In this document: piece by piece, positions 33,633-61,184 of the stretch
How the letters are laid out: every line of letters starts with the position of its first letter
Position numbering within the stretch: the stretch's first letter is position 1
Assembly (NCBI GenBank): GCA_038087875.1
Contig: CM075990.1
Span: 12,774,001 to 12,838,000, forward strand
Reading direction: 5' to 3'
DNA from: Malacoraja senta
Lineage: Eukaryota
Length of the DNA: 64,000 nucleotides
Notes under the pieces: model-generated
The model's database searches: none
Told to the model about the DNA's origin: nothing
The model's input: the letters and a program-made list of their open reading frames with translations, nothing else
Made by a program: the position numbers and the translations under genes

Positions 33633-33741
33633 TCATACCTGCTCCTTCAGGTGAAGCAGAAATTCATAGTAGGACATTGCTGATTCAGTGCGGTCATTGA
33701 TCAGATGCTGGATGAATATGGACCGTGAAGTACTGTCATCC
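33633..33741 (-). CDS. SEC24A/B-like last coding exon (DDSTSRSIFIQHLINDRTESAMSYYEFLLHLKEQV*)
   Basis: Conserved DRTE..SYYEFLLH C-terminus; TGA at 33635-33633. Confidence 0.96.
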
Positions 33742-34866
33742 CTGTCGAAGAAAGGCCGGCAGAATTAATCCATGGCATTGCTTAACTATTCCTGAATTGT
33801 CAAACACTCCAATATCTGGTCGTCAACATCACAGGGTGAAGCAGACAGTATTATTATCACTTACAGTACACGAGGCAACAGATATTTTGATGTTAAAATC
33901 ACCGTAGAAATGCATGGTTTGTTGAATTTCGGCTCATTTGTGCTTCTGCTGATGCTGTGACAGAGTTCGGGACGGCCATTCTCATGCTCTTTTCCCACAT
34001 TTCCTTTAAACTTATTCTTACACTTTACAATGAAATCTGCTTTCAGCACGTGAGGAGGGCACGGCCGTTTACCAACTAAAAGAAAATTCTCACCTCCTCT
34101 TTGCTTCTTTTACCTTTCATCACAAACCTGTGACCTTTGGTCCCTATACTCCAACCATTAGAAGTAGTTTGTCCTTATTTACTCTGTGAACAATTTCATA
34201 GTTTTAAACACTTCCCACCGATTGCCCCTTCAAGGGAACAAAGCATGCTTGCCAGTCTTTCAACATACAATGTAAAGAGACACTATTTGTCCTCTGTCTA
34301 TCCCTTGCACTTATCGCACGTACATTGTAGCTGCCATACACTGAAGTTGATAACACTGACATTTCTAATGCAACCTTATATATTACAGTATTTCCCATTG
34401 ATAACTGATGATGCCACCTAATTTGCAGTGGAGATTGTAGTAATTTTCCCAACTGAATGTTTATAATCCCTTTCCAACCTACTTCACCTCATTTCATCAG
34501 CGCCATATCCTGTTCTAACTCTTGTGCTTCCCCAAAAGTGTATTCAAGAAGAAGAAATGTAAAAGTAAGATTATTTTCTGAAGAAGGGTCGCGACCCAAA
34601 AGGCCACCTATCCTTTTTTCTCAGAGATGCTGCCTGACCCTGAAGATGTGCCTATCTTCGGTGTAAACCAGCATCTGTAGTTGCTTCCTACAATCATTGT
34701 AACATAACTGAGGTTCCTCATTACTGCAATCATATTGGTAGACTCCTCTGCATCCTCCACAAGGCTTTGACCTCCCCAAAGTGCTCCAGAATTACATATT
34801 AAAGCCTGAATGGGGCCGATAAAGAATGCATTTAATTTCCTTGCTTTTGTTCTCTATAAAGCCTAA

Positions 34867-35196
34867 TAGTCCTGTCCCACGGTACGAGTTCATTCCAAGA
34901 GCTCTCCCGAGTTTTAAAAAAATCAATCTCGTGGTAAACATGGAGAATGAACGTAGCGGGTACGTCGGAGCTTGGGGACGTCTCTTAGCGACTCATAACG
35001 CTCACGGCAGGTAATCGGGAAGACTCGCTAACGGCAGGTAAGCTCGGGAAGACTCGTGAAGATTTTTCAACATGTTGAAAAATGTCCATGAGAGCCCCGA
35101 GTACCGATGAGTGGCCATTACCGTAAATCTCCGAGTTCAAATCAGGGCAAACTCGGGAGAGCTCTTGGAATGAACTCGTACAGTGGGACAGGGCTT
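34867..35196. mobile_element. PIF/Harbinger-type MITE
   Basis: About 47-bp TIRs (CCTGTCCCAC.GTACGAGTTCATTCCAAGAGCTCTCCCGAGTTT); TAA TSD; internal palindrome ATTTTTCAACATGTTGAAAAAT. Confidence 0.88.
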
Positions 35197-36476
35197 TAAG
35201 ATTCATATGATCTTTGTACCAACTTGGCTTGATCACATTGTATCTGTTAGATACCAAACTTCATTGTTACTGCACCCTGGTTAAAACGGTACCATTTATT
35301 TTATAATTGCCTCTTCATGCAATGTATCACATTTCTCTGCATTATGTTCAAGATGCTGAATTACCCGTCTCTATCCTGCTGAAGTCTCTTACTATTTGCC
35401 TCACTGTTTAGCTACCAAGATTAGCTAACACTGGTGCAAAAAGACCTAAGGTTTGGTCATCCAGTGTGTGCATCACATTACATCTGTTGCTGTAAGGCTT
35501 TAGAACAGGGCAAGCCTTGTGAGCAGGCACACGTACGTACATACACACAGACACAACGCTGCACTGTCACTCTTGCTCAGAAAGATGTAAAAGATACCAA
35601 CACACCATTAAATGTACCAACAGGGAATTCTCTCTCTATGTCCAGGCCAAAGCTGATTTATTTGCCAACACGCAAAGAGATGATTCTGCTCCACTATTAT
35701 CATTTCATTTATTGGGAACTTGCCATCAACGAGGGGATCCTAAATGTATTGAATTACATTGAATTGGCAGCAAGGGAAGAAACCATGGAGGCCACCCAGT
35801 TTGTGCAAATATGTATGACCTGTTGGAATCTCCTCTCATCCTGTCAGTAAACCTTTTCCCATTCCTTCTCTCCAGACATGCTGCCTGTCCTGCTTAGTTG
35901 CTCCAGCATTTTGTGTCTATCTTCGGTGTAAACCAGCATCTGCAGTCCCTTCCTGCACTAAACATTTTCCGTGCTTGCTCAGTTATCCAAGTTATTCTTC
36001 AATACTTTTTTGTCTCAATCAATCAATGTAAGAGCATATCTGTACCGAATATATTGCGGATAATCTTATACTAAAGCCCCGAATGGTGTGAAGGGCCGGA
36101 CACAGACTGACTATGAGTACTGTAGATTTGCCACAGGGCAGCACTGAACCTTCAGTTACTACAGGTCATTCACTCTCACCCACAGTGAGTGAACTTTAAA
36201 ACATTGCCAGGAATTGCTCCCAGATGTCTTTTAGTGGAAGCATTTAAAGTGTATTCTGAGCAGAAGCATTCAGCTACATGATCATAAGACCAAAATCTAT
36301 GGGCTGCAGGTCAAAGACTCAATCAATCAATCTTCCCACAGAGAGATTCAAGTAGAATGCCAACAAATGAAGGTTTTTCCAAAGTGCAGGATGAATTCCT
36401 GTAAATTAGCATCATATGTCATCCAACGCCATATTTTATAGCCCAATAATTTGGACGATTGCAGGAATGTGTCATT

Positions 36477-36765
36477 GGAGTGGCACAGTGGCGCAGCAGT
36501 AGAGTTGCTGCCTTACAGCGCCACAGACCTGGGTTCGATCCAGACTATGGGTGCAGACTCCGTGGAGTTTGCACGTTCTCCCTGTGACCACGTGGGTTTT
36601 CTCCGGGGAACTCCGGTTTCCTCCCACATTCCAAAGACGTGCAGGTTTGTAGGTTAATTGGTTTCTGTAAATTGTCCCTAGGAAAGAGGATGATGGTTGA
36701 TCTGCGCAGACTCGGTGGGCCAAAGGGCATGTTTCCACACTGTATCTCTAAAGTAAACTAAACTA
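36477..36765 (+). mobile_element. tRNA-derived V-SINE (HE1-like)
   Basis: Boxes A and B, V-domain, (TAAAC)n tail. Confidence 0.87.
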
Positions 36766-37026
36766 GGCTTCCAATGGTGGGGTGGCTGTGATGGCAACTG
36801 TCGCACACTCTCAGCTCCACTTCTCAAAGCTAAAGACATCTAATGACGCAAAAGGCCCTTTAATATGGGACAAATCTGATGACATGGGTGCACATTTCCC
36901 TGTTTTGATGCTCTGGCCAATTCACCAATACTGTACATCAATCAGCTTAGATGTCAGCGCCAAAAGCAAGTATGTGAAATAAAGTCCAAAGAGTTTAAAT
37001 GAGATTCGGAGAAACCTTGTACTCAC

Positions 37027-37130
37027 TTAATGATAAAGCAAGGCGCATAGTAAAGTCTCTCCTTCCTTAAAGATTCCAGCAGCACATGGATTTGTTTAGA
37101 AGCTGGACTTTCCAAAATGGGCAGCAAAGT
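37027..37130 (-). CDS. SEC24A/B-like penultimate coding exon (TLLPILESPASKQIHVLLESLRKERLYYAPCFIIK)
   Basis: Hand translation; tttcAG acceptor, AA|GTGAGT donor; 104 nt, phase 2. Confidence 0.88.
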
Positions 37131-38431
37131 CTGAAACACAGCAAAGGTATTGATGTTGACATTTGCTTGGCGTTTCCTCATGTTTGCCTAGACACATGGG
37201 CCTAAATTTCATTGGAAGTAATTCTGTTGCATTGGCAGATGTTTCGCACTCGATGAAAGCTGCAGCACAATCAGCAGAGGGCAACTCCTCAGGAGTTCCA
37301 CACACAGACAATCAGTTCACTGTACTACATAGTCAGAAAACGACATCAGGAAATGAAGTCTGAAGATTTTATTTTCTGCAGCAATGGTATATCAAGAGTC
37401 AAGAGTGTTTTATTGTCAGGTGTCCCGGATGGGGCAATGGAATTCTTACTTGCTGCAGCACAACAGAATATGTGAATATGTAAATCCACTTCGGGGGAAG
37501 AGAAAAAAACACTTCATTAAATAACAAATATAGTGCAATAATAATATAGTCTTTTGCAGTACGATACGATCCAATACAAATGTATTCATCCCCGGAGGGA
37601 TATTGGTCTGCCAACAGTCATAACACACGACAAGGTACATGAAAACTTGAAATTAAAATTAAATTAAAAGTGAGAAAAAAAAAGAAATTAGACCAGCTGG
37701 CTGGCTGCCATATGCGCGGCGCCTTAACCGGAACGAACAAACAAACAAACGAACGCAGGTTTATCCCCTGGGCAGAGGATTCTAAAACTAGTGCCCCCCT
37801 CCCCCACAAGGGGCCCTCCATCGTTCTCCCATCATCCCTCATGGCGGGGCCCCCACGCCAGGGTCCCTGTTGTCCCCATGCTGTATATTTCCACATGTGG
37901 TGGTTGTTGAAGGCAAGACAACCCCAACAATTGAGAAAGATTTTGACAAACATCTAAAGAAAAATATGAAAAGGGCTGAAGAAAATCAAAAAGTGCAGAT
38001 ACTTCAAATTTGAAATGAGGAACAGCAAGTGCAAGAAATCAGATCTTTGTCCTGAAATGTTAACTCTGCTTCTCTTTCCATCAATGCTGCCAGACCAGCA
38101 CACAACTCCAGAATGTTATGTTTCTAGTAATATGTAGAATGGTGCTTATTCGATTTCCTCTTAAATATATTGGCACTGTTCAGTTCAACTGAGTGAGTTA
38201 AATAAAATTCTATCCCAAGATCCCTATCGCTAATCCTGTTTATAATATTGGCCCTTGATTTTAGTTTTCCCTTCAAGGGGAAACAACCACCTGCATCAAC
38301 CTAACAATTCCATTCACAATTTTAAAGTCCTCCGTCAGATTACATCCGTTTTTCCGACATTGAAGAAAAGAGCCCTGTCTGTTCAGTCTTTCCTGAAAGA
38401 TTTTATTTCCCCTGCTGAATGTAGGTTATTA

Positions 38432-39210
38432 GAGTCATAGAGTGATACAGTGTGGAAACAGGCCCTTTGGCCCAACTTGCCCATAATGGCCAATATGTCC
38501 CAGCTACACCAGTCCCACCTACCTGCGCTTGGTCCATATCCCTCCAAACTTGTCCTATCCATGTACCTGAATAACTGTTTCTTAAATGTTGGGATAGTCC
38601 CAGCCTCAACCACCACCTCTGGCAGCTTGTTCCATACACCCACCACGCGCTAGAATTTAGGAGATTGAGAGGGGATCTTATAGAAACGTACAAAATTCTT
38701 ATGGGGTTGGACAGGCTAGATGCAGGAAGATTGTTCCCGATGTTGGGGAAGTCCAGGACAAGGGGTCACAGCTTAAGGATAAGGGGGAAACCCTTTAAGA
38801 CCGAGATGAGGAAAAACTTTTTCACACAGAGAGTGGTGAATCTCTGGAACTCTCTGCCACAGAGGGTAGTTGAGGCCAGTTCATTGGCTATATTTAAGAG
38901 GGAGTTAGATGTGGCCCTTGTGGCTAAGGGGATCAGGGGGTATGGAGAGAAGGCAGGTACGGGATACTGAGTTGGATGATCAGCCATGATCATATTGAAT
39001 GGCTGTGCAGGCTCGAAGGGCCGAATGGCCTACTCCTGCACCTATTTTCTATGTATCTATGTATCTATGTACCCTTTGTGTGAAACAATTACCCCTCAGA
39101 TTCCTATTAAATCTTTTCCCCTTCACCTTGAACCTATGTCCTCTGATCACCGATTCCCCTACTCTGGGCAAGAGATTCTGTGCATCTACCCGATCTATTC
39201 CTCTCATTAT
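38432..39210. mobile_element. Minus-strand CR1 fragment interrupted by a younger plus-strand CR1 fragment (about 38647-39070)
   Basis: The host sequence CATACACCCACCACCCTTTGTGTG is split by a RGDLIETYKIL...-coding insert with a (CTATGTAT)n tail. Confidence 0.88.
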
Positions 39211-39319
39211 TCTTGCAGTTTCTCCCATGTTTTTATTGTCCTTTTTATATAATGAGGCTTGAAGTGTTTAATAACCTGGTCAGAAGTAAAGGGAGTGGCA
39301 ACACAGACACAGGACTTAC

Positions 39320-39412
39320 CACAGTGGCTGGTAGCGAGGTATAACTGGACACGCCCAGTACATCAACGAGGAAATTAGTGTTGCAATGCCTGCCGACCCA
39401 GAGATACAGAGC
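39320..39412 (-). CDS. SEC24A/B-like exon (ALYLWVGRHCNTNFLVDVLGVSSYTSLPATV)
   Basis: WVG..C..NF...VLG motif; cgcAG acceptor, GTG|GTAAGT donor; 93 nt. Confidence 0.95.
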
Positions 39413-39547
39413 CTGCGGAACACAACCCACAATCCTGGTCACACAATTATTGTATGGTCCCAGTAGTCAACAAAACACAATCGCTTTAGAATACACGATA
39501 TATGAGCTATCCAGCAGTGCTCAGCAGCACCTTTCATCCAAAACTGC

Positions 39548-40062
39548 TAGACTCCATCGGTGGAGAGCATACTGACTGGTTGCATCATGGCCTGGTTCAA
39601 TAACTGGAAGGAGGTTGTATAAAGTGGTGGGCACTGCCCAGTCCATCATGAGCATTGACCTCCCCACTATAGAAGAGATCTTCAGGAGTCACTGCCTCAA
39701 GAAGGCAGCTAATATCATCAAAGACCCACACCACACTGGCCACAATCTCATCTCGCTGCTACTATCGGGAAGAAGGTACCGTGACCTCCAGGTTCAAGAA
39801 CAGCTTCTTCCCATCTACGATCAGGTTCATGAACAACACCGCATTGTGCTAACTCAGCAACTAACTACTGTGGACTTTCTAATAGGTTGCACAATGTACT
39901 TCAGCGTGCACTATTATAGCCTGGTTACTTATTTATTTATTGTATTGTTGTTTTATTGTATATTTATTCATTGTGTCTATGCATTAATGAGCCGGTGAAG
40001 CTGCAAATAAACATTTCATAGTTCTATTACTGGAGCGTATGAACATTAAACGCTCTTGACTC
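39548..40062 (+). mobile_element. Decayed Rex1/Babar-type LINE 3' fragment
   Basis: CLKKAANIIKDPHHTGH.LISLL.SGRRYR; 3' end ACGCTCTTGACTC. Confidence 0.75.
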
Positions 40063-40400
40063 AACTCTTCCCTGTCTCAACACTGGGTGGTGTTGGTGTA
40101 TAGGGAATGGAAGCCCTATGTGCTGGCAAGCCCATAACATCAGTGTATTCCTGATTATAAAAAACAGCTATAAAAATGTGTAGTAAGCCAATCATGATTT
40201 CAGTTATTATATTCCTTTAGGTAGATGACAGTGCTTTCTGAACAAGGGGTTTGAAAGAGGTATATGTGGACAACACTTGTGGTGTCATCTCTCAGTCACC
40301 TAGACCCCAACCCTTGCTAATGCAGTACCCAACCCAACTGTCCCCCAGTCACCCCGTCCCCCAACTACTGTTCACCCAGATCCAATCCTGTCACCCAGAT

Positions 40401-40471
40401 CCCAACCATCAGCCGCTCTTGTCCCTGACCCAATCATCAGCCGCTCTTGTCCCTGACCCAATCATCAGCCG
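40401..40471. repeat. 28-bp tandem repeat (about 2.5 copies) inside a C-rich degenerate minisatellite (about 40290-40560)
   Basis: Unit CCCAATCATCAGCCGCTCTTGTCCCTGA. Confidence 0.85.
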
Positions 40472-40622
40472 ATTACTCCGTCCCCAACTGTTGATCACAC
40501 AGACCCAATCCTCAGTCACCCAGACCTCAGAGCTCAGCCACACACTCCCCAAACATCAATCCACCAGAAACCACCTGGTTCCCAAGCTCCCAGGTGCAGA
40601 GAAACCAGACACCAGAGGCTCT

Positions 40623-41145
40623 TTCAGGCCACATTTGGAATATTGTGAGCAATTTTGGGCCCCATATCTGAGGAAGGATGTGCTGGTCTTGGAGAGGGTC
40701 CAGAGGAGGTTTACCAGAATGATCCCAGGAATGAGTGGGTTAACGTATGATGAGCGTTTGTTAGCACTGGACCTATATTTGCTGGAGTTTAGAAGAATAA
40801 GAGGGGACCTCATTGAAATGTAAAAAATAGTGAAAGTCTTGGATAGAGTGGATGTGGAGAGGATGTTTCCACTAGTGGGGAAGTCTAGGACTTGGAGTTA
40901 TTTTAGGAAGGAGATGACGAGGAATTTCTTTCGTCAGAGGGTGGTGAATCTGTGGAGTTCTTTCCCACAGAGGCTGTGGAGGAAAAGTCAGTGGATATAG
41001 TTAAGGCAGAGATAGATAGATTCTTGATTAGTCAGAGGTTATGGGGAGAAGAGGATGGGATCTGGAGGTAGATCAGCCATGAATGAATGGCGGAGTGGAC
41101 TTGATGGACTGAATGGCCTAATTCTACTATCACTTATGATTTTAT
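40623..41145 (+). mobile_element. CR1 LINE 3' fragment
   Basis: RPHLEYCEQFWAPYLRKDVLVLERVQRRFTRMIPG. Confidence 0.85.
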
Positions 41146-41512
41146 GAGACGGTGAATCGAGTGAGAAGTATATACGTGCCCACTAACAACAGGAAAAGGC
41201 AGGTGTGTCTTAAGGTCAAGGTCATGATGTGAAAGAATCTTAATATCTCCAATTCAAACCCATTTGGGACACATCTCAGGACTGGTATTCCGTGTCAGGA
41301 ACATCTTCACCTTTCTAACAGGCAATTGGGCAAGCTTTTCTCTTCTCACGTGCTTGATGCCTGGAGTTGTTTGCTCCATGTTGCCTCCATAAAAACATTG
41401 ACTTTTATAGGTGGCCATGACAGGGAGGTGGCTGGGACTGATAAAGAGGCTACACGTATGTAGGTTCTCTTCCCATGCTCTTGAACTGTTTCCATGTAGC
41501 ATTTACACTTAC

Positions 41513-41620
41513 ATTACCACAGTCCATTAGGAATGCCCCTGCCAGTGTAAGACCTTCTGCAGACAGCGGTATCAAGGCTGGCCTCTTTACTGTCCTGGTG
41601 TCTGTTTCCACAGAATCCTG
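41513..41620 (-). CDS. SEC24A/B-like exon, start of gelsolin-like domain (QDSVETDTRTVKRPALIPLSAEGLTLAGAFLMDCGN)
   Basis: LSAE and GAFLMDCG motifs; NAGNAG acceptor, AAT|GTAAGT donor; 108 nt. Confidence 0.93.
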
Positions 41621-41687
41621 CTGTTAGATAGAAAAAGAACAAAAACAGTTTGATGCCCCGTTCGCTAATCTCACTACCACGAGCAAT

Positions 41688-42055
41688 CTCTCGCTCTCAG
41701 TCTGTCTCCCTCAGTGTCTGTCTGTCTGTCTCTCTCTCGCTCCCTCACTCACTCTCTCTCTCTCTTTCTCTCTGTTTCTCTCTCGCTCTTTGTCTCTCCC
41801 TCTCTCTCTCTTGCTCTCTATCTCTCTCTTGCACTCTGGCTCTCTCTCTCTGTCTCTCTTTCTCTGCTTCTCTCTCTCTCTGCCTCTCTCTGTATGAGTC
41901 TGTCTCTCTGTCTGTCTCTCTCGCTCTCTGTCTCTGTCTTTGTCTCTCTGTCTCTCTGTCTCTGAGTCTGTTTGTCTGTCACTCACTCTCTCTCTGTCTC
42001 TCTCTCTCTTTGTCTCTCTCTGTCTCTCTCTTTGTCTCTCTCTTTGTCTCTCTCT
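41688..42055. repeat. Complex (CT)n/(CTGT)n microsatellite
   Basis: Direct inspection. Confidence 0.95.
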
Positions 42056-42113
42056 GAGTATCCATGGCTTGATTGAAGCAAGAGCCCATTTACAGTGTAA
42101 CCACAACACTCAC

Positions 42114-42266
42114 ATTGTCTACAGTCTCGCCATTGAGGTAATCATCGATGCGATACAGATCTGGGTAAACCATCTGCAACACAAAAGTCAGTGGCTGCTC
42201 CATCAACTGAGACATCCTGAAGACCCGTTCATCCAGAGTCATTGTAAGACCCGTGTGGAAGGCAGG
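42114..42266 (-). CDS. SEC24A/B-like exon (PAFHTGLTMTLDERVFRMSQLMEQPL...YPDLYRIDDYLNGETVDN)
   Basis: LDER and P.LYRID motifs; tccAG acceptor, AAT|GTGAGT donor; 153 nt. Confidence 0.94.
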
Positions 42267-43684
42267 CTGGAGGGCAAAACGTAATGCATTTTAAAAACAA
42301 ATAAGAGAAAGGTTTACATGAAGACTTGGAATATTATCTACTTCATGCCCAATGCTATATCTTAAATAAATCCCTTAGCGTCCTCGATGACAGAGAGGAA
42401 TGTCCACCAGCACCCTCCCTAAAGAAAGACACAAAATGCTGGAGTAACTCAGCAGGACAGGCAGCATCTCTGGAGAGAGGGAATGGGTGGCGTTCAAGGT
42501 CGAGACCCTTCTTCAGTCTATCTTCAGTTTAAACCAGCATCTGCAGTTCCTTCCTGCACCACCCTCCCTGATATTGTGGCAGATGGCGTGACTTCAATTT
42601 AGGAACACAACCTAGCATTTTTGATAGGGCGACGTTAAATTAAAAGTTTAAATTTAAATTGTGTGGTCCAAACTCAAACCAAAATGATTTGATTGCTACA
42701 ACCAAACATATATTGCCAAATGTCATTAGATTCAAGAATATGTTTCTCAGAGATTTTGCACAGTAAATGCTGATTAAATCCTTTACAAAAGGGTGACACA
42801 GTGGTGCAGTTGGGAAATACAGTGGTGTAGCGGTAGAGCCTCTAACGTGCGTCAGTGACCTGGGATCAATCTTGATTTTGGGTGCTGTCTGTGTGGAGTT
42901 TGCATGTTCTCCCTGTACCCACGTGGGTTTCCTCCCACAGCCCAAAGGCGTGTGGGTTTGTAGGTTAATTGGCCTCTGGAAATTGGCCACCCAGTGTTGA
43001 GACAGGGAAGAGTTGAGTCAAGAGCCTTTAATCTGTAGGGAGTTGATGTAAAACTGGGATAATATCGAACTAATGTGAATGAGTAGGAATAAAGAACTGC
43101 AGTAGCTGGTTTACTGAAAAATATACAAAATGTGCTGGAGTAACTCAGTTATTCCAACACATTGTGTCTTTTTCAATGGGTGATCAGTGGTTAGTGTGGA
43201 CTTGGTGGATGTAAGTGCCTGTTTCCATGTTGTATGGAAATTCTGAACTAAATATCGAGCTGGGACAGGGCTGGAGATCTGGGAATATTCTCGGCTCAGA
43301 GTGTTGAATTATCTGCAAGACGTACATGCGGAATTCATCAGGTCAGAGTTGAAAAGCGACACTGATGCACTAAAGACGGAGGAATGCTCAGATCTCACAC
43401 AGATCTGGTTTGTTATCTGATATTGAAAGCATATCTCAGTGCGCTCTTATCAGTTGGTTTAAAGTATCTGGTTCTTGCGTGAAAGAACTGCCAGAGCCTG
43501 CCCTTGACCATCGTCCTGGATGGCCTGTTTATCAACCCTAATCATGTCAAAATCTAAAGAAAATTTGCTTTAAGTCCGGGGATAGACTCTGTTTCAGAAT
43601 TTCCACATAAACAGGGTGGAGATTTGTTAAAAATGGTAACATCACATAGTATGGTAACAGACTGCTATTTATTTTCTCACTGTA

Positions 43685-43998: not shown

Positions 43999-44551
43999 AG
44001 TTCAAGGATCAGAGGGCACTATCTACAATAACAAGGATTGTGGAAGGAGCAGACATTGTGGGACTCATTACTTGACCATTTCACCCTCTAATTTCAAACA
44101 ATCCCTTCGTGTCCTCCATGTCAGAGAGGAATGTGTACCACTACCCTCCCTGGTATTGTGAGAGGTGTCATTACTTCAATTTAGAAACACAGCCTAGCGT
44201 TTATGATAGGGCAACGTTGAATTAAATGTTAAAATAAAATATTTGTCAAACAAACTCAAACCAAAATTATTGCTACAACCAAACAATATTGCCAAATGTC
44301 ACTAGATTCTAGTGTATGTTTCTCAGAGATTTTGCACAGTAAATGCTCAATAAATCCTTTGCAAAAGGGCAACACCGTGGCACAATTGGGCAATTTTAGT
44401 GGTGTAGTGGTAGAGCCACCACCTTACAGCGTCAGAGACCCAGGTTCAATCCTGATTTTGGGTGCTGCATGTGCGGAGTTTGCATGTTCTTGTGGCAAGT
44501 TGTTATCTAATTTAATGCTGAACAGTCTTCTCCGTATTCTGTGGCTCTCAC

Positions 44552-44727
44552 CTGCTTCAGGAGGGCCAGGACGTAGAGTGGAAGCTGCAGCAGTGTGTTG
44601 GGGATGGGGAGTGTGGCGTGCTGGGGGCTGCGTGCTGACGTGCGATAAGCAACAAGAACATCAGTCAGCATCTTGATCAGCTCATCTCGGCTGCTAGAGA
44701 GCGACTGCCTCACTGAGCGATCCACTG
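44552..44727 (-). CDS. SEC24A/B-like exon, helical domain (AVDRSVRQSLSSSRDELIKM...LPLYVLALLKQ)
   Basis: AVDRS and PLYVLALLKQ motifs; CAG|GTGAG donor; 176 nt. Confidence 0.95.
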
Positions 44728-46524: not shown

Positions 46525-46635
46525 CCATCTTAGAAAGAAAGCCCACAATAACGCTGACATTGGCTCCTGCATAAACGTCAGCTGGGGAGCTAACAACCGG
46601 GAGGCAGTAGGTGTAGATGCGAACTCGCCTTTCAC
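46525..46635 (-). CDS. SEC24A/B-like exon (GERRVRIYTYCLPVVSSPADVYAGANVSVIVGFLSKM)
   Basis: GERR.R and CLPVV motifs; ttttAG acceptor, G|GTAAG donor; 111 nt. Confidence 0.95.
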
Positions 46636-47786: not shown

Positions 47787-47960
47787 CTTGGCAGGAAGTG
47801 TAGAGTAGAGAGCACTGAAAGATCACATGCGAACTCTCAGCTATAGCGCCATCTATCAGCATTTGAAAGGCAAACTCTGCCTGAGGATAGACACAGGGCA
47901 CAGTTAGCATCTGCATTGATTGCAGGAAAGAATTTCCATAGAAAGTGTCCACAATGAGAC
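47787..47960 (-). CDS. SEC24A/B-like exon, beta-sandwich domain (GLIVDTFYGNSF...FQCSLLYTSCQ)
   Basis: TF.GN and FQ..LLYTS motifs; tttAG acceptor, G|GTAGA donor; 174 nt. Confidence 0.94.
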
Positions 47961-48674: not shown

Positions 48675-48833
48675 CTTGTGTACATCGAATCCTCAGCATC
48701 CCCTCGTGGCCGAAGGAACGGGTCAGGTAGCTCTGGAATTCTTGGTGGAGTTTTTCCACCAGGGCAGAACTGTGGATGTGGTGGAATGCTGGGTAATAAT
48801 ACATAGAGCCACACGTGTACCTGGAAAGACAAG
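48675..48833 (-). CDS. SEC24A/B-like exon (ACLSRYTCGSMYYYPAFHH...YLTRSFGHEGMLRIRCTQ)
   Basis: Contains the B-site RIR motif; tacAG acceptor, G|GTGAG donor; 159 nt. Confidence 0.96.
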
Positions 48834-51005: not shown

Positions 51006-51101
51006 CCTTTGCTCTAAATTCTATGTATGCATGTGTAACCTTTTGCTCTTTTTTCATAATGTATCATCAATCATTCCTGCAAACTACTCGATGAACATCC
51101 G

Positions 51102-51167
51102 CTCACTTTGTGTACATCGAATCTTCAGCATCCCCTCATGGCTGAAGGCGAGGGTCAGGTAACTCTG
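51102..51167 (-). pseudogene. Intronic partial duplicate of the SEC24-like exon at 48675-48833
   Basis: Reads QSYLTLAFSHEGMLKIRCTQ then GTGAG, versus QSYLTRSFGHEGMLRIRCTQ then GTGAG in the real exon. Confidence 0.88.
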
Positions 51168-51931
51168 TGTGGGGCAGGCAATACACATGGATATCACCTC
51201 CCTACAATGTACGAGGTTAGCGTAAGATGCTATGCTACACTAGGAGGGGGAGAAAAGGGGGGAGTTTAAGGTTAGTTACCTAATATTGGAGAATTATATT
51301 GGTATCTTACATCGGTAGTGCTTTAATGTTGGGGTAATGGACTGCTAAGCCCAAATGGACTTTACTGAAGAACGAAAAGATAAACAACATTCCCTACACT
51401 GGTACAGGAGAACAACCAGCTATTGTATCTATTCCAGTACCGTTTAGTTATTACAGGCTGTTGTTATCTGATTTTGATGCCTGAAAGGGGAGATGCAGGC
51501 TTAGTAGGAAGCTAGAATAGAGAACCTGGTGTATACTTGAAGCCCAAAATGAGAAGGGTAACAAGGAGAGGGACTGTTTTGATTATTCCTCAAAATAACC
51601 AGAGCAGGTAAGAAAGGCCTCATTAGTTGTTAAATTTGTAAGCCTAGAATTTCATCTTTGCTTCGGCTTCTACTACGGCACCCACCCAACTGTGTCCCGT
51701 ATGTGGGCGAGCCTTCCGGGCCCAGATTGGTCTCACCAGTCACCACCGGACCCACAAACAAAAACACTGAAGTCATGGTCTTCTTCAACTACGAAGGACG
51801 AACAACAAAACAAGTATATGCATATTGTACTTAACAACATTAACATGCTATGTTTAGCGTATAAGACACTCTACCCCTATTACTGTATATCCCAGGACAC
51901 TGACTGGCTTTGCCATTGTCTAAACACTCAC

Positions 51932-52055
51932 CTATAGATGCAAGGTCCGTATACTGCTGGCTCAGCAGGAATAGGTCCACCCCTGTCTGCTGTCCACAAA
52001 ACTCAAGTGCAAGCACTTTGTAGAAATTCATAGCTGACCCCAAGTGCTTAGCTCC
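51932..52055 (-). CDS. SEC24A/B-like exon (GAKHLGSAMNFYKVLALEFCGQQTGVDLFLLSQQYTDLASI)
   Basis: FYK.LAL, VDLFLLS and DLAS motifs; G|GTGAGT donor; 124 nt. Confidence 0.94.
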
Positions 52056-53442
52056 CTTGTGCAGAGGGAGGAAGGAAGAAACATTCATTCAATTCAAGTA
52101 TTTAAATTTAAATTCATATATTCTAAATTTAGATCCTCCTGCATGACTTTGTGTACAAGTTCATACTGTGAAAGATTGGAAGGCGATGCACTTGCATCTC
52201 AGGAGCAACACAGTTGGTAAGTCCATTGCCTCTTGAAAATATCACTGTTAACACTCAACTTACGCTAATTACTGTACGACAGCAATTAACAGGACTAAGA
52301 AAAAAACAAATACGTACTGGGTTCATTCCGAGAAGGTTAGAATTGTAAAGCAAAGAGATTAAGTTAAAATTGCATGGGACATTAGTTATAACCCAGACAA
52401 TTACCATTTCTTGTGGAAAATGGTTACATAAAACAACCAGAAAGTGGTGGAGTAACTCAGCAGGTCAGGCAGCATCTCTGGAGAATGGTCTGAAGAAGTG
52501 TCCCGACCCAAAACATCCCTATCCATGTTCTCCAGAGATGCTGCCGGACCTGCTGAGTTACTCCAGCAATTTAGTTTAGTTTAGAGAAACAGCGAGGAAA
52601 CAGACCCATCAGCCCACCGAACCAGCGATCCCCGCACATTTTAAATTACAATTAAAACACAAAGTACTTGTGCTATAACTCCAGGATAAGCGCTCAACTA
52701 AGAAAACCAAGCCCCAAACCAAAGTATGATCTAACTAAATACACCAACTTACAATAAATGACTCCATATGTGGAAAAAAACCCAGCTACCTACATATTAA
52801 TTCACTTTAAAAAACAACTGATCGTGTAGATGCAAGTGTATCATTGGGGTTATCAAGTGGGCACCTCCCTTCATTGATGTTTCATTGAGTTAGGCCCATG
52901 ACTCCTCAGGAAGGCTCAACAGTTGGTTCTGGCGTCCCATAGAGGTAACCAAAGGAGAAGCCAGATAAGAGGAGAAAGGAATATACTGCTAGAGAAACTG
53001 GTTACCCTTATCAGGCAACTGAACTGTCGTATCACCAACTGGAGGGCGGTCCTGACCTAACATCTACCTCATGGGGACATTCAGAATATCTTTAATTGGA
53101 CTTCACTTGACTTTATCTGGTGATTTCACATACAGTGTATGTGACAAATATTGCATATTGACTATTGACGAAATGTTATTCCCTTTATCCTGTATCTATA
53201 CACTATGGACAGCCTGATTGTAATCATCATTTTGCTGACTGGATAGCACGCAACAAAAAATATTTTCTTTGTGCCTCGGTACACGTGACAATAATAAACT
53301 AAACTAAAGTAAAATGGAGCATAAACCAGTGAATCCTAGGCCGAGATTTCTTTGTGATTCCAGCGAACTTGTGAGATGGTAATTCGCTGACCAGTAGGAC
53401 TGCCCACTAAGGTAAGGGTTCATAGGAGAAACATCAGCCTAC

Positions 53443-53643
53443 CAGAGTACAGTCGCCAGGATCATCCCGTGATTGCAAGGACCCACAGCCGGTGTTGGGT
53501 AACTGGGTCAAAAAGGCAGACACTCGCCCGCCACAACACATTAGGACTTTTTGAGCGAGCTGCAGGGCTGGTCCAAAGGCACATGCTTTCTTCTGAGTGT
53601 CTCTGAACATACCTGGCAGTTCTTCCAGTAAGGAAATGATGAG
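53443..53643 (-). CDS. SEC24A/B-like exon (LIISLLEELPGMF...AFGPALQ...GGRVSAFLTQLPNTGCGSLQSRDDPGDCTL)
   Basis: GPALQ, GGRV and TQLP motifs; cacAG acceptor, CTG|GTAGG donor; 201 nt. Confidence 0.95.
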
Positions 53644-53696
53644 CTGTGACACAGGAAGTGTTAAATTAGTGGGAACATTAGAACAATCACACACAA

Positions 53697-54110
53697 CTAT
53701 CCATCATCGGCGGTCACTCGAAACGAGTATGACTGTCCTCTCATGGAGGACGCCTGTGCGTGACTTTGTTTAACGTGGGGAGACTGGTGCACAGACAGCC
53801 ACCACACGGTCCTTGACAGATCTGGGTCAGGATCCAGTGGCATGGAATCCAAGACGACCGGGGACCCTTTTCTGTTGCAGCCTTCATCCGCCTTCCCAGC
53901 TGTTGTGACGCTCCACTAAAGTCAGCCATCATCCTCTGCCTGTTCCACTGTTGAGGTCTTGGTTGGATTGCTCTTTGTCAGAGACCTCCCCCTCGACCTT
54001 ACCGCCATGGGTGACCCTACCAGGAACATAGCTCCAGACGGCATCGGTCTCAGGATCTCAGGACCACACAAGCTTCTCCACCACGATAAGGTGACAATCC
54101 ACGGAGAAGA
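53697..54110 (-). mobile_element. Short non-autonomous RTE-clade element
   Basis: The minus-strand 5' part (CACCTTATCGTGGTGGAGAAGCTTGTG...TAGGGTCACCCATGGCGG) resembles RTE/BovB-type 5' UTRs, from memory; GAT-repeat tail; no ORF. Confidence 0.6.
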
Positions 54111-54812
54111 ACAATGTAGTTTCATGCTTTCAGCTGCAGCTTTCATTTGACGAGGTAAACCAGTAAACTTGAGAGGGGAGACCATTGTAGTTGGGAAGAC
54201 TGTTGCTAAGGAGTACGTATCAAATTAAATCTGTCAGCTGAGTTGATGAGTACTGTTTAGGAATTTTAAAAATGAGGCTCAAAACTGGTGTGAATTGTGG
54301 GCTTTGGGTGGGTCTGCAGAAGAATCACAACAGTGGCATACAATACAAAACGATACAATAGAACTATTTCTCCCAGAAGGGAAATTGATCTGCCAACAGT
54401 CATAAAACACAAGATAAATGAAACATAAAATTAAAGTGACGAGTGGAAAGTATTGGGGATGTGCAAAGATTTGGGGAGGGAGGGTAGGGGAGTCAGTCTA
54501 CCCCACGACAGAAGGGGGAGGAGTTGTACAGTTTGATAGCCACAGGGAAGAAGGATCTCGTGTGGTGTTCTGTACTGCAGAACAGTGGAACCAGTCTGTT
54601 GCTGAAGGTGCTCCTCAGGTTGACCAGTGCGTCATAATGGGTGCTTGGTTGTCATCTTCCAAAATGTTATGGAACGGTCATTAACAGTGGAGCAGACTCG
54701 AGGGCCAAATGGGCGACCGACCTGTTCTTGTTTCTGTATTTACAATGATTCCAGCAAGTAGCAATTTGGTAACAGGTGGAACCAGAAGTCATTTGACTCC
54801 TCTGGTGCATTA

Positions 54813-55024
54813 AGGGGCTGTCCCACTTGCGCGTAATTTACGTGATGTCATTTACGTGTCACAACGCACGACGCGCGCATGGTGCGCATTACGCGCGCAT
54901 GGTGCGTGATGACATTGGCAGTGACACACGATGTTGCAGGATTTTGTGATGTACAAAATCTTCGAGCGCCATCTGCGTGACGCGCAAATGACAGCCAAGT
55001 GACCTGCTATTATTCGCGCGCCCT
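54813..55024. mobile_element. PIF/Harbinger-type MITE, same family as 63115-63297 in opposite orientation, with a damaged right TIR
   Basis: AGGGGCTGTCCCACTTG left end; TTA TSD; CpG-rich body shared with the 63.1-kb copy. Confidence 0.8.
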
Positions 55025-55357
55025 TTAGACCTGCTATTATTCTCCGTACTCGCCTAAACTTCTGATTCCATCAGGTAAGAAATTTTAAAACAACGTGAGA
55101 TCATGCAAGCACTTTCTAGTGTGTGAGGCACAGATGGTCAACAGTCAAGATTTAATGGCATAAGTCAATGAAGGAAGAAGTGATTAAGTATTATGGAAAG
55201 ATGGTATAGAGCAGACTTATTTTCTTGCATGGAGTGTAAACACAATGAGCTGGATGGGCTGAATAGCCTGATTCTGTGTGAACATAACTACAATATACAA
55301 TTGTAATTTGGTAATAAGAAACATTGCATGATCTTATGAGGACAAGAATTGTCATAC

Positions 55358-55413
55358 CTGTCTACTTTGTTGGAGATTCACCAACATCTCATTTTCGTTT
55401 GGGACAAAGATAT
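55358..55413 (-). CDS. SEC24A/B-like exon with the SEC23-binding strand (DIFVPNENEMLVNLQQSRQ)
   Basis: ttttAG acceptor, CAG|GTATGA donor; 56 nt, phase-consistent. Confidence 0.92.
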
Positions 55414-56935
55414 CTAAAAGAAGAAAACTGCATGTGATAACTGTGAAGACCGCAACAGAGATTGGTTAAAGTCAGTTGATTCGATGTTCTAGACACAAAG
55501 TGATGGTGTAACTCAGCAGGTCAGGCGGCATCCCTGGAGAAAAAAGGGTGACGTTTCGGATCGGGACCCTTCAACTCCTACATGAAGCATCCTCTACAGT
55601 AAGACAGTAGAGTCTGAAGAAGGGTCTCGACCCGAAATGTCACCCATCCTTTTTCTCCAGAGATGCTGCTTGACCCGCTGAGATACTCCAGCACTTTGTG
55701 TCTATCTTCGGTATACACCAGCATCTGCAGTTCCTTTCTACAGATTCAATGATCTAGCCTGGCTGAGTAGTCCAAACCACAACTTTCTTTTAACTGTAGA
55801 AGAACATCCCATTATTTTTCCAGAAGAATTATCAAAATAAAATGGGAACTGAATCGGAGGATATGTTGGGATAGGTGTTTTTTATTTGTTTAAAATGGGG
55901 ATCAAAGAGGACTGTGAGAAATCCAGATTTAAATCTGGATTTACTGAAGATTTACTGAATTTAAGAAATTAATTTAAGAGCACAAGAACACGTGGCATTT
56001 AAAAGGGAGCTGGATATTTGCAGAGCACTAGGGAGAAAACAGGAGAATGAAGATAGAGACAAAATGCTGGAGTAACTCAGCAGCATCTCTGGAGAAAAGG
56101 AATAGGTAACATTTCGGGTCGAGACACTTTTTCAGGCTCACAGGGGAATGAGATCATTTGACAGCTCTTTGACAAGTACAAATGACAAGTAAAAATGACA
56201 GGTAGACAAGAATGCTGGAGAAACTCAGTGGGTGAGGTAGCATCTATGGAGCAAAGGAATAGGCGACTTTTCGGGTCGAGACCCTTCTTCTGACTCATGT
56301 GGGGATGGGGGGGGCGGGAAGAAGAAAGGAAGAGGCGGAGACAGTGGGCTGTGGGAGAGTAAAAATGGCATGTATAAAGGGCCAAAATGCTGCATCCTTC
56401 TGCTTCTAATCCTGACAAGTCGTATTGCAAGAGTGTTGCATTCTCATGCCCAGACAATTTAGATATGGAGTGGCCAGTAACAAAGTCTAAGAATCCCTGA
56501 ACATTAACAGTGGTACCATTGGGATTTAACACCTACACAGTGTTGAGAATTAATAGGCTTCAGAGAACGGGTCCAACCACAGGATCTTCCAAGGCCAAGA
56601 GAGGTGCATCTAATCATCACCCAGTCACAGGGACGTACTGTACTTCCTACCCCTTTAGTTGATATCCATCAATAAATGCATCTGTAGTGGCCATTTGGCT
56701 TGTTTTGTGTGTCATTGATGATGGCATGTGTCTTTAAATTTTAGACTGCCCGTTATACTGTGGGTGGGATTTATGACGTATTTTTGGGGCTAACGTTTCT
56801 TGCGCAGAAGCTTAGTTGTTAGTTTAGTTTCGGACCAGCATGCAGAAGGTTTACCCTTTGACCATGCGAAGTGTAACGGAGACACGTGGAGTTTTCTAAT
56901 GTTTAAAGCGATAAGCTGGAGTTCGATGAAGATTA

Positions 56936-58225
56936 CCCCTCAAAGCTGGCCTCCAAATTGTACAACCTCCACTTGTGCCCATCCCTGAGCAAGTGGATCC
57001 ACAATTTCCTGACCGGCAGACCACAGCTGGTGCGTGTGGGCCATCACATGTCATCCTCCCTCACCCTCAACACTGGGGCCCCCCAGGGCTGTGTGCTGAG
57101 CCCTCTGCTGTATTATCTCTACACCCACGACTGCAAGGCCATCTCAGACTCTAACATCATAGTCAGGTTTGCAGATGACACAGTAGTGGTAGGCCTAATC
57201 TCAAACAATGATGAGGCAGCCTACCACTCTGAAATCATCCACCTGGCAAACTGGTGTAGGGAGAATAACCTGGAGCTGAACACCTCCAAGACCAAGGAGC
57301 TCATAGTGGACTTCTCCAGGAAGCAGCAGAGGAGCTTTCTCCCCTTCAGCATAAACGGGGCCCAGGTGGAGAGGGTGGAGAGCTTCAGGTACCTCGGCAT
57401 CCACATCTCCCAGGACCTGACATGGTCACACCACCTCAGCAGCCTGGTAAAGAAGGCCAACCAGCGTCTTTACCATCTCAGATGGCTGAGGGACTTCAAG
57501 CTCCCCCTCAGGGTGCTCAAGAACTTCTACACCCATACTGTGGAGAGCATCCTGAGTGGGAGCATCATCACCTGGATGGGGAACACCATCAAGAGGGACC
57601 AACTGGCTCTGAGGAGGGTGGTTCGCTCAGCTGAGCGGACCATCAAAACCACCCTTCCCAACCTGCAGGACATCTACACCAAGCGCTGCAGGTCAAGAGC
57701 CAGGAGGATTATCCAGGACCACACTCACCCCAACAACAGACTGTTTTCCCTGCTGCCCTCAGGGAAACGGTACCGGCTGCTCAGGGCCAACACGGAGAGA
57801 ATGAGGAGGAGTTTCTTTCCCCAGGCCGTGAGACTGCTGAACGAGGACGGAGTGTCGCCGCCCCCCCCCCCCAGCCCCCCAACGCCCAAACCCTCCCCAC
57901 CCTCCTCACCAGCACCTGCACCGCTGCCCAAACCCCCCGCCCGCCCCGCCTCGCCACCATCAAACACACACACACATGGAACTGGATGGAACATGCTGTC
58001 ATCACAGGTGTTCCACGGCACTTGTCACTTTGCTTGTAACAGCACTACTTGTTATGTGGTATATTTATGGGGTATGTGTTATATGTAGGTATTGTTTTAT
58101 GTGGGTTATGTGTAAGTGGGGAACCATGCACAATTGGACAGGCACTTAAGCATTTCACTACTGGTTATACCTGTATAATTAAGTATGTGACCAATAAACT
58201 TGAATTGAATTGAATTGAATTGAAT
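56936..58225 (+). mobile_element. 5'-truncated Rex1/Babar-type LINE with an uninterrupted RT ORF
   Basis: GAPQGCVLSPLLY, FADDT, KTKELIVDF; AATAAA followed by a (TTGAA)n tail. Confidence 0.93.
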
Positions 58226-58511
58226 TATAGTAACGAGTCGGAAGAAGTTTGGATGTACCTTATTGTTTTTCATCAACAATAAAGAATTTATTCATCAAAA
58301 GACTGTGTTTTTGAAGACGTATCTGAAGAAGCTCTGAAGGTCCCTGACGGTGAGATCACATGCGTATAAAGACATTCCCCTTAACCATGCAGTCCATTTA
58401 GCGACTAGAGGGAGTAATCTCTTGAACGATATAAAAATCTGCCACTACAGCACCCAGCTCAAGAAACATTGGGTAAACTAATCCCAGCCCACCCGATCAA
58501 CAAAGACCTAC

Positions 58512-58630
58512 CATCAGTATCAGCCATGACCATCATGCGGGGTCGAAACAGACTGTTGTGCAATTGGAAGACATTTACCGTGCTGGAGAATGTAATGAAT
58601 CCAATGCGGGTTTGTGAATCACCAGGTAAC
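58512..58630 (-). CDS. SEC24A/B-like exon (LPGDSQTRIGFITFSSTVNVFQLHNSLFRPRMMVMADTD)
   Basis: IGFITF motif; cctAG acceptor, G|GTAGGT donor; 119 nt. Confidence 0.95.
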
Positions 58631-59006
58631 CTAGGCAACAAAAGACAGCAAATAAGGTTGGAAGTAGGTTTCGTCATTCGTAGAGCAATTGTACTTGTTT
58701 TCCTGTTACACCATGGGAGCAACGATGCAGGGGGAGAGATCCTAGATATTAACTAACAAGCACAGATGGAGGAAAGGTCTCATCAACCCCATACTTTCAG
58801 ATGATCATTCATCCCCCCTGTTGTGAAGTCTTTCCCACCTACTGAATTTCCATTTCCATTTTGAATTCCTACAACAGGGACATTTTTTTCACATTTACAC
58901 CAAGCCAATTAATCGACAAGCATGTACATCTTTGGAGTGTGGGAGAAAACCTACGCTGTTTACATCAGCTTAAATTATATCTAATGAGAGCCATTGTGAG
59001 CCTCAC

Positions 59007-59119
59007 CTGTCTATATTCTGCAGCAGGATTTTGCAGACAATTCCCAGGTAACCAGTTTCCAAGGCACAGTCACTAACATCAAACACAAACAGGTATGTTA
59101 CAGGCCGAAGCTGCCCAGC
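59007..59119 (-). CDS. SEC24A/B-like exon, start of trunk/vWA domain (AGQLRPVTYLFVFDVSDCALETGYLGIVCKILLQNIDR)
   Basis: YLFVFDVS and ETGYL motifs; ttcAG acceptor, AG|GTGAG donor; 113 nt. Confidence 0.95.
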
Positions 59120-60129
59120 CTGAATAAGGACAGAGATAACAGCAAGCAATTAGTGAAGCCAAGCTCTTGCCAGCAGGGGAGATGTACAAAGTACGTCACA
59201 GTGAGCGGTGGATGTCAGATGGGGAGAGAGGATGATGCTGACTCGTGTTACAGGGGAATTTGTTCACCTCAGCTGTCCATTTGCAGAAGGGTGCAGAGTG
59301 TAAGAAGTGACTGTTCACCAAGTGGAGGTGACATGATGCGTACAACTAGTATCTGATCCCAGCACCCCTGTCAGCCTGACTGGGTTATAGAGAGGGATTG
59401 ATCTAGTGCTGAGAGCCCCTCATCATCCACCAGTGATATACCTGCAGCAGATGTGTTGTACAATGTGCCTGTGTGGTCCAGATTTGTTCTGGCCTTTTCC
59501 TACCTCCAGTCCCCCCACCCCTCTACTTTCAGTCTGAAGAAGGTTTCCGGTCCGAAACGTCTCCCATCCCCTTTCTCCAGAGATGCTGCCAGAGTCGCTA
59601 AGTTATTCCAGTACTTTGTGTCTATCTTCAGTATAAACCGACGCCTGCAGTTCCTTCTTACACATGAAGTGTCCTCTGCAGTGACACAAAGCAATTATTC
59701 TGCACTGTGAGATGGAGAAATCTTAATACAGGCTTACAGAAAGAGTATCTTGTACACTTGTATTCCACACAACAAGCAGAGCCGGTGTGTCTTGTTTGAC
59801 TGCCTGACTGCGGGAGAAGATGCAAGGAAGAGATTTTTTTACCTTCCATCACAGTGAGGAGGTGCCTGGAGGAGACTCACTGTGATGGATGTTTCTGTTA
59901 CATTGTGTTTAATTGTGTGTTTTGTTACTATCTTACTGTTATGTCTGCATGGCAACGAAATTTCATGCAAACTTATTTTTGAATGACAAATAAAGCAATT
60001 CAATTCAATTCAATTCTGTGGTGCTTTGAAGAAATGAGAGGAAAAAACTGAAAAAACTGTTAAAAGCTTCATCTGGTGCAGCTTCATTCGCAACATGGAA
60101 AGAATATACATAAAACAGGTTGTGTATAA

Positions 60130-60843
60130 CCCAAGACGCAACTATAACACACTCTTTTGTTTCTTGTATAAAACTTCATGGATTTTGGAGTGATATTTTC
60201 GAAATATTCACAAAATTATTTAAGACAAAAGTGGAACCCAATAATGAATTGATTATATTTGGGGTAATGGAAGATGGGAACAAATTGAACCCATCTCAAA
60301 AATTATTTTTTAATTATGGTTTAATAATAGCAAAAAAATTAATATTGAAATTTTGGAAAAATACACCAATACCAACGCTCAAAATGTGGATTGCAAGTAT
60401 GTTGGATACCGCACATTTTGAGGAAATGCGATTCCTCCTAATAGATAAATTTGACCAATTCATAACGAGTTGGTCTCCATTTGTCGTCTTTTTGGAAACA
60501 TATGGTGCAACACAATTGTAAAAGCTAATCCGTGACTGGGTGAGAAATGGTCAAGATTATAAATACGATCTCCTTACTTCTCTTTTCTTTTTCTTCTCTT
60601 TTCTTCTTTTACTCTTTTTCTTCTATTTTCTATTTCTTAACTTTCTTTTTCACTCTCTATTTTTCTTTTTCACACACTATATATCTCACATTTTTCTATT
60701 CTTCATTGTCTAATTTCTTTTTATTTTTCTTCTTTATAACAAAATTAAAAAAATAAGAAGCTGTACATAAAATGTATTATGAAAATATGATTGTATACAA
60801 TTGTACTTCTAATAAAAATAAATAATAAAAATAAAAAATAAAA
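60130..60843 (+). mobile_element. 5'-truncated L1-clade LINE (ORF2 C-terminus, 3' UTR, A-rich tail)
   Basis: H.F..C.KL..FW...AKKLILKFWK; 18-bp TSD AAAACAGGTTGTGTATAA at 60112-60129 and 60844-60861. Confidence 0.9.
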
Positions 60844-61074
60844 AAAACAGGTTGTGTATAATATGAAAGGAATTAGCAATAAAATGAGTATGTTGGTATG
60901 TCGGTACTCTGTATAGTGTAAGCAGCTATGGTTAGTGGAGATAATTAGTGCAGTGAAAGTGTATTTTTAGTACGGTTGTACTGGGGATTTGTACAGTGAA
61001 AGTATACATCCAGGAAGGTTTGTGTGCAATGAGTCAGTGTGTACTTGTTCCCTGTGGAGTGAAGGGATTTGTAC

Positions 61075-61184
61075 CTGATATTCCATTGGCACCAGAAACT
61101 CCACCGCTGCATGCTGTAGTTCAGGCCGATTGTATGGATTTGAGGGACTGCCAGTCATGGAGTCAAAGAGGAAATTCCCAGGAA
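61075..61184 (-). CDS. SEC24A/B-like COPII cargo adaptor, first exon in window (VPGNFLFDSMTG...RPELQHAAVEFLVPMEYQ)
   Basis: Resembles the SEC24A/B segment after the zinc finger (RPE..ATIEF.AP.EY); ttccAG acceptor, CAG|GTAC donor; 110 nt. Confidence 0.9.

Follow-up and report, generated by a model that had tools for sequence, protein, structure and literature searches.

SEC24 gene in the window

Vertebrates are usually credited with four SEC24 cargo adaptors. The window analysed here, the whole 64,000-nt stretch of Malacoraja senta contig CM075990.1, consists of repeat-rich, skate-like vertebrate DNA and carries on its minus strand the last 15 coding exons of a SEC24A/B-type gene, which is almost certainly a third gene of this type, separate from both SEC24A and SEC24B, and is hereafter called the paralog. 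The gene and its exons are located as follows, with residues numbered as in human SEC24A:

33633..61184, minus strand: the 15 final coding exons of the SEC24A/B-type paralog, covering the end of the zinc-finger linker and the trunk, beta-sandwich, helical and gelsolin domains
61075..61184, minus strand: exon 1 of 15, 110 nt
59007..59119, minus strand: exon 2, 113 nt; its first codon is the L498 equivalent (Ala), and the trunk domain begins here
58512..58630, minus strand: exon 3, 119 nt; Gln at the R541-equivalent codon
55358..55413, minus strand: exon 4, 56 nt
53443..53643, minus strand: exon 5, 201 nt; served as the first search query
51932..52055, minus strand: exon 6, 124 nt
48675..48833, minus strand: exon 7, 159 nt; Met at the V748 equivalent, R750 and R752 retained
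47787..47960, minus strand: exon 8, 174 nt; Gln at the R769 and K813 equivalents
46525..46635, minus strand: exon 9, 111 nt
44552..44727, minus strand: exon 10, 176 nt; helical domain
42114..42266, minus strand: exon 11, 153 nt
41513..41620, minus strand: exon 12, 108 nt
39320..39412, minus strand: exon 13, 93 nt; gelsolin-like domain; absent from some shark isoform models
37027..37130, minus strand: exon 14, 104 nt
33633..33741, minus strand: exon 15, 109 nt; stop codon 33635-33633

When the gene was rebuilt by coordinates along the minus strand from 61184 to 33633, an AG acceptor was found at all 15 exons and a GT start in all 14 introns, which range from 376 to 3285 nt. The exons sum to exactly 1910 nt, giving 635 codons and a terminal stop in one frame, while each of the remaining two frames of the joined exons contains 33 stops; an earlier note on this DNA had described 15 phase-consistent GT-AG exons of 1910 nt with an open frame, and the rebuild reproduces them. 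A retrocopy is ruled out by the 14 introns.

The product is identical at 618 of 635 positions (97.3%, gapless) to protein XP_055517725 (P0001) of Leucoraja erinacea, which is 827 aa long and bears the RefSeq name 'Sec24B-like', and shows 96.7% identity to the Amblyraja radiata models. The 5' exons lie beyond the window end (64000), so the part of the gene encoding 192 residues including the zinc finger is outside the window, and tblastn with residues 1-186 of XP_055517725 detected no exon within the 64 kb.

Several local features of the gene were also observed. A 14-bp direct repeat is present in two copies in the window, one across the stop codon (33627-33640) and the other at 31707-31720, and the pair brackets about 1.9 kb of repeat-derived DNA; it probably represents the target-site duplication left by an insertion at the stop that lengthened the 3' untranslated region and kept the protein unchanged. 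The first AATAAA beyond this insertion is at 31363. Skate and ray paralogs stop two residues before the shark and chimaera ones, which finish with Cys-Lys (window 33633-33641). The intron upstream of exon 7 contains a 67-nt copy of the end of this exon with its donor site (51101-51167, minus strand, 88% identity), which resembles a partial duplicate of the exon that has since decayed, and intron 10 includes a stretch of about 350 nt twice (44139-44490 and 42557-42910, 82% identical).

Family membership and domains

In phmmer comparisons the window protein scores 826 bits with SEC24B and 792 bits with SEC24A, as opposed to 325 bits with SEC24C and 281 bits with SEC24D, so a C/D-type identity is ruled out, and the assignment to the SEC24A/B type which the earlier note had made from motifs is correct. 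The four motif changes it listed relative to human SEC24A (MLRPPQPP to QAGQLRPV, GFEAVMRIR to GHEGMLRIR, FFVRSTDLL to SFLQSMQML and RIRVHTLC to RVRIYTYC) proved real against Protein Data Bank (PDB) chain 2nup_B. XP_055517725 possesses the zinc finger, trunk, beta-sandwich, helical and gelsolin domains in this order, all above the Pfam cut-off, and the last four of these five Sec23/24 domains fall within the window. The four zinc cysteines are retained in all 19 paralogs compared.

Distribution across species

Residues 80-827 of XP_055517725 were used as a query, with 8000 candidates scored and the best 120 listed. The top 17 of these 120 are chondrichthyan sequences from 13 species, including Callorhinchus, with 62-100% identity, and the other 103, nearly all named SEC24B, show 48-50% identity. 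Cluster look-ups added seven chondrichthyan species, bringing the total to 20, and the paralog frames are open in 20 species. Distinct SEC24B proteins coexist with the paralog in Heptranchias and Pristiophorus, and in Heptranchias SEC24B is located on a 198.6-Mb contig as against a 27.6-Mb contig for the paralog.

An exhaustive phmmer search over 1.84 billion representatives of 50%-identity clusters listed 150 matches, 149 of them new, and only two of the new representatives match the paralog group better than they match SEC24B (score ratios 2.8 and 1.95, the next being 0.89). These belong to reedfish, in a cluster shared with Polypterus, and to coelacanth, placing the paralog in coelacanth and two bichirs. 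The same listing also held a partial coelacanth SEC24A and sequences from lamprey, hagfish, amphioxus and other invertebrates, and coelacanth thus carries three genes: SEC24A (P0203, partial), SEC24B (P0022) and the paralog. The suggestion that the gene was kept in cartilaginous fishes therefore holds for 20 chondrichthyan species, although the gene is not restricted to them, and its presence in coelacanth and bichirs means that it predates the split between sharks and bony fishes.

No tetrapod or teleost copy was detected among the best 120 of 8000 candidates, the 150 listed clusters or the 120 listed rows of a profile search. The profile search, aimed at more bony-fish members, gave none besides coelacanth among its 120 listed rows and missed the bichir as well, and a search of the ESM Atlas returned generic SEC24 clusters only. 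To our knowledge, mammals and zebrafish have SEC24A-D only. It is likely that the paralog was lost from tetrapods and teleosts.

The bichir and reedfish copies (P0328 and P0170) are far more diverged than the others, with an end branch of 1.07, and P0328, the only one of the two scanned, falls below the Pfam cut-off for the gelsolin domain. These copies may be heading toward loss.

Phylogeny

Trees were built with FastTree from 45 rows and with IQ-TREE (LG+C20) from 27 of those rows and 746 columns, the 18 rows dropped for run time being mostly near-redundant; both comprised sequences other than SEC24C/D, and the two are concordant. In the IQ-TREE tree the paralogs form one clade (100/100) which tracks the species tree, lies inside the vertebrates (100/99) and branches outside SEC24A+SEC24B (91/91). 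The SEC24B clade (99/96) includes the Heptranchias and Pristiophorus SEC24B proteins and leaves out the paralog. The Electrophorus row, one of the two partial SEC24A models, is labelled SEC24B in UniRef, yet the tree unites it with coelacanth SEC24A (100/99).

Being nearer to SEC24A/B than to SEC24C/D and nested inside the vertebrate A/B clade, the paralog belongs to the Sec24I (SEC24A/B) lineage, and the same nesting rules out an identity with Sec24III. The case in which the gene would simply be the chondrichthyan SEC24A is rejected by the approximately unbiased (AU) test, where constraining the chondrichthyan paralog to join SEC24A lowers the log-likelihood by 170 units (p=4e-6). The earlier proposal of a separate paralog is thus supported by the tree, by the three coelacanth genes and by a skate chromosome differing from that of Sec24a.

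Synteny and origin

The downstream neighbour of the paralog in the window was used as a synteny marker:

530..24775, minus strand: hnRNP D/AB/DL-type gene with two RNA recognition motifs (3' end approximate)

Its promoter lies in a CpG-rich stretch near 24-26 kb. In the little skate the SEC24 paralog was assigned to Leri_34C (chromosome 34) by the length of its contig, 19,860,700, which is exactly the end coordinate of Leri_34C, rather than by direct gene position. The same chromosome carries 'Hnrnpd-2' at 6.46 Mb, together with Ecd, Micu1, Bloc1s2, Unc5b, Znf503, Adk, Adamts14, Gdf10 and Ppp3cb, with Sec24a and Hnrnpab being located on Leri_11C and Hnrnpd-1 and Hnrnpdl on Leri_1C (PMC10115646 and its supplement). 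The hnRNP gene of the window is likely to be the ortholog of 'Hnrnpd-2', which brings the family to four, the others being Hnrnpab, Hnrnpd-1 and Hnrnpdl, and which is probably a retained ohnolog as well. Ecd, Micu1, Bloc1s2 and the genes listed with them on Leri_34C we take to be human chromosome 10 genes.

The regions 4q25, 5q35 and 10q22 have been described as one paralogon (PMC4678570), and for linkage groups I/Q the skate chromosomes are assigned as LER15+LER34 (=GGA6) to 1alpha, LER11 (=GGA13) to 2beta and LER1/LER3 to 2alpha (PMC10115646, SI Table 3). The little-skate paralog is thus found where an ohnolog of the first round of genome duplication (1R) would be located, on Leri_34C, chordate linkage group (CLG) Q, 1alpha, and not where an ortholog of SEC24A should be, as Sec24a is on Leri_11C and coelacanth has both genes. 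With the paralog and the extra hnRNP D gene on the 1alpha segment and Sec24a elsewhere, it is likely that the paralog is a 1R ohnolog. Most simply, SEC24A and SEC24B would be a pair from the second round (2R), the paralog would survive from the other 1R chromosome, and its hnRNP neighbour would be a second survivor. Leri_34C also carries the suffix-numbered genes Msx2-2, Tmem150a-2, Ppif-1 and Arhgap22-1, which may be further retained paralogs (PMC10115646, SI Table 10).

Evolutionary rate, fold and N-terminal arm

The distance between Heptranchias and Latimeria is 0.949 for the paralog as compared to 0.247 for SEC24B, so the gene is indeed fast-evolving, as the earlier note had supposed, at about 3.8 times the SEC24B rate. 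The paralog is 49% identical to the SEC24B rows, whereas ape SEC24B is still 62% identical to that of starfish, and of the 223 columns near-invariant elsewhere, nearly all paralogs have lost 34, and 109 show partial loss. The skate and sevengill shark paralogs show 77% identity over 629 columns, the split between these lineages being dated to about 286 million years (Myr) ago (PMC10115646).

The AlphaFold model of the skate ortholog, made with an 81-row alignment, has a predicted local distance difference test score (pLDDT) of 88, with low confidence for residues 1-73, and its top match is human SEC24B with a template modelling (TM) score of 0.96 and a root-mean-square deviation of 1.8 Å. The N-terminal arm comprises 70-138 residues in most paralog models compared with 308-520 in the SEC24B rows; the outliers are a doubtful Heterodontus model with 355 residues and the chimaera and coelacanth models, where the arm is shorter. 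Judging from these sequences, most of the proline-rich N-terminal arm is lost in the paralog. Nothing on the Sec24 N-terminal arm was found in the searched part of PMC7594496.

Cargo-site residues

Positions in human SEC24A numbering were mapped via the alignment to 2nup_B, whose chain start we take to be SEC24A residue 341, and the named residue types were matched in the SEC24B rows. The B site is formed by R430, R435, Y437, Y496, L498, V748, R750 and R752, and the C site by R541 and K813 (PMC12463132; bioRxiv 10.1101/2022.01.31.478454). The B-site residues are mostly retained in the 19 paralogs, namely Y437 in all, R750 in 17, R752 and Y496 in 16 each and R430 in 14. The exceptions are R435, kept in 1/19 paralogs against 24/24 other rows, L498 (0/19 against 21/24) and V748 (2/19 against 24/25). 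As for the C site, K813 is kept in two paralogs, both from bichirs, against 21/24 other rows, and R541 in eight, all from sharks, against 24/25; both residues are Gln in the window gene. R769 and L773, which are presumably near the B site, are kept in none and one of the paralogs, respectively, and in 24/24 other rows each. The new states are fixed in chondrichthyans, with Gln at K813 and at R769 in 16/16 and Ala at L498 in 15/16.

The identity between the skate paralog and ape SEC24B, compared with that between the ape and starfish proteins, is 59% against 84% in the zinc finger, 32% against 61% in the linker, 49% against 83% in the beta-sandwich, 53% against 64% in the trunk and 48% against 48% in the gelsolin domain. 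The excess divergence is located in the B-site domains.

Expression

The complete 826-aa protein is encoded by each of three Logan contigs, 3170-3243 nt in length, and as the gene spans more than 27 kb, these contigs must derive from spliced RNA of related skates. Several isoforms per species are present in RefSeq. Mapping of RNA reads was swamped by transposon copies, which left the joints uninformative. Another three contigs stop at exon edges with a depth of 3-4, and little weight was given to them, two of these runs probably being DNA. A search of sequencing runs returned no RNA run listed as carrying the paralog.

Proposed function and alternative explanations

Taking all the parts together, it is quite reasonable to suggest, and we consider it probable, that the gene represents a third, intact member of the SEC24A/B lineage, likely a 1R copy lost from tetrapods and teleosts, and likely encodes an inner-coat adaptor of COPII with a shifted cargo preference, the shifted-cargo mechanism being less sure than the claims of a separate paralog and of a 1R origin. 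Such a protein would pair with SEC23 via the trunk domain and join Sar1-GTP coats at the exit sites of the endoplasmic reticulum (ER). Since its B site keeps R750, R752, Y437 and Y496 and loses R435, L498 and V748, it may differ from SEC24A/B in its binding of DxE, LxxLE and C-terminal hydrophobic signals, and with the C site largely lost it would be expected to capture SEC22B poorly. Alongside SEC24A-D it might handle a more restricted range of cargo, expressed at low levels or locally. A bolder version, which we put forward tentatively and hold somewhat doubtful, is that early jawed vertebrates had five SEC24s, and that the fifth of them, 'SEC24E', discarded its disordered arm and had its B and C sites remodelled for an export signal unread by SEC24A-D, serving a tissue-specific load that was later lost or re-routed in tetrapods and teleosts.

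Several observations weigh against the proposed origin and function. A sister position of the whole paralog clade to SEC24A (p=0.060) or to SEC24B (p=0.135) is not rejected by the AU test, so its branching relative to these two genes is not fixed by the tree alone, and the cyclostome position is likewise unsettled. The paralog stem is long (0.45), and the placement may consequently be pulled outward; in a 16-row tree without the bichir and with doubtful SEC24A stretches masked, support for A+B falls to 82/84. SEC24A is represented in the tree by two partial models, with no shark SEC24A protein among the rows, and the evidence for the skate Sec24a consists of the name given to a gene in a table of a supplement. 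As the bichir fell below the profile-search listing, copies in gar, sturgeon, lungfish and amphibians could be hidden. The bichir copies are devoid of the conserved trunk DIF/DVF-x-P motif, which fits decay; many rows of the AlphaFold alignment were ordinary SEC24s, so that the fold match is partly built in; and in a polyA RNA run from a related species, of which about 6% was read, the depth was 0 and 0.23 in two exon-bearing bins, which points to weak or absent expression in this single RNA sample.

The AU results leave standing a functional but small-scale duplicate of SEC24A or SEC24B which arose in stem gnathostomes and moved to another chromosome instead of being a 1R ohnolog, and the best matches beyond the paralog clade, being SEC24B, would agree with that. 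We find this quite improbable, given that the best trees place the paralog outside A+B and that it occupies the corresponding chromosome of the paralogon (LER34, CLG Q, 1alpha) together with the third-locus hnRNP D gene, where a random move is unlikely to have brought it. That the gene is nothing more than the SEC24A or SEC24B ortholog of chondrichthyans, as the RefSeq names 'Sec24A-like' and 'Sec24B-like' would have it, or else a pseudogene, is scarcely credible in view of the AU rejection of the chondrichthyan paralog with SEC24A, the separate shark SEC24B proteins, the skate Sec24a on another chromosome, the coelacanth with all three genes, and the open frame and full-length mRNA-sized contigs.

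Other explanations accept the 1R copy or the intact protein and differ as to what it does. A redundant ohnolog under relaxed selection, acting as a backup coat without cargo of its own and lost lineage by lineage, would account for the elevated rate, for the loss of near-invariant columns, for the very long bichir branch and for the lack of a tetrapod or teleost copy among the matches listed. This is unlikely, in our opinion, because replacement residues are fixed at several sites across 16 chondrichthyans, the skate and sevengill shark proteins have remained 77% identical after about 286 Myr and the divergence is concentrated in the cargo-site domains; change concentrated at cargo-binding sites and then held favours a shift in specificity over plain decay. 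The short arm and the changed C-site and several B-site residues might also point to a non-coating or inhibitory form which binds SEC23, captures little cargo and tunes ER export, a very improbable alternative considering that the core B-site residues R750, R752, Y437 and Y496 are retained in 16-19 of the 19 paralogs and that the whole predicted fold and the zinc site are intact.

The paralog indicates that a fifth SEC24 was present in the ancestor of jawed vertebrates and has been retained in sharks, rays, a chimaera, coelacanth and bichirs. As the cargo-pocket residues are near-invariant from coral to ape but changed and re-fixed in the paralog, nature has here set up an experiment, open to testing, on the way in which export signals are read by SEC24, and, if the five-adaptor ('SEC24E') scenario were true, the paralog would be a natural variant with which the cargo specificity of COPII could be decoded.

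Comparison with known systems

The paralog sequences are already present in RefSeq under the automatic names 'Sec24A-like' and 'Sec24B-like'. No description of this paralog was found in the literature searched, with most subscription papers outside the search and several supplements only partly covered. The term 'SEC24' occurs once in the searched part of the PMC10115646 supplement spreadsheet, in the Leri_11C Sec24a row, and is absent from the 12 of 24 whale-shark supplement files searched and from two files of PMC11406177.

The closest known relatives are human SEC24B and SEC24A (Sec24I clade, PMC4419792; PDB 3eh1, 2nup, 5vni), which have in common with the paralog the five Pfam domains, the four zinc cysteines and the fold (TM 0.95-0.96 over the target for the predicted model) and mostly share R750, R752, Y437 and Y496. 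The paralog differs from them in its short arm of about 80 aa, in the replacement of R435, L498, V748, K813, R769 and often R541, and in having its own clade and chromosome. SEC24C and SEC24D of the Sec24II clade resemble it in fold and domain order, although the similarity is far lower (325/281 against 792-826 bits). Sec24III, the ancient third eukaryotic paralog, is likewise an extra and patchily kept Sec24, and has been reported as lost from opisthokonts (PMC4419792). In evolutionary terms the gene would fall into one class with those ohnologs that chondrichthyans have retained and certain bony lineages have lost, of which 68 cases, e.g. wnt6b and cspg5, have been described (PMC10115646), being a copy from a whole-genome duplication kept in sharks, rays and a few bony fishes. 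The surprise is limited to that extent, since shark-retained ohnologs are a known class; unlike those ohnologs, however, the SEC24 paralog is a core subunit of the secretory coat with altered ligand sites.

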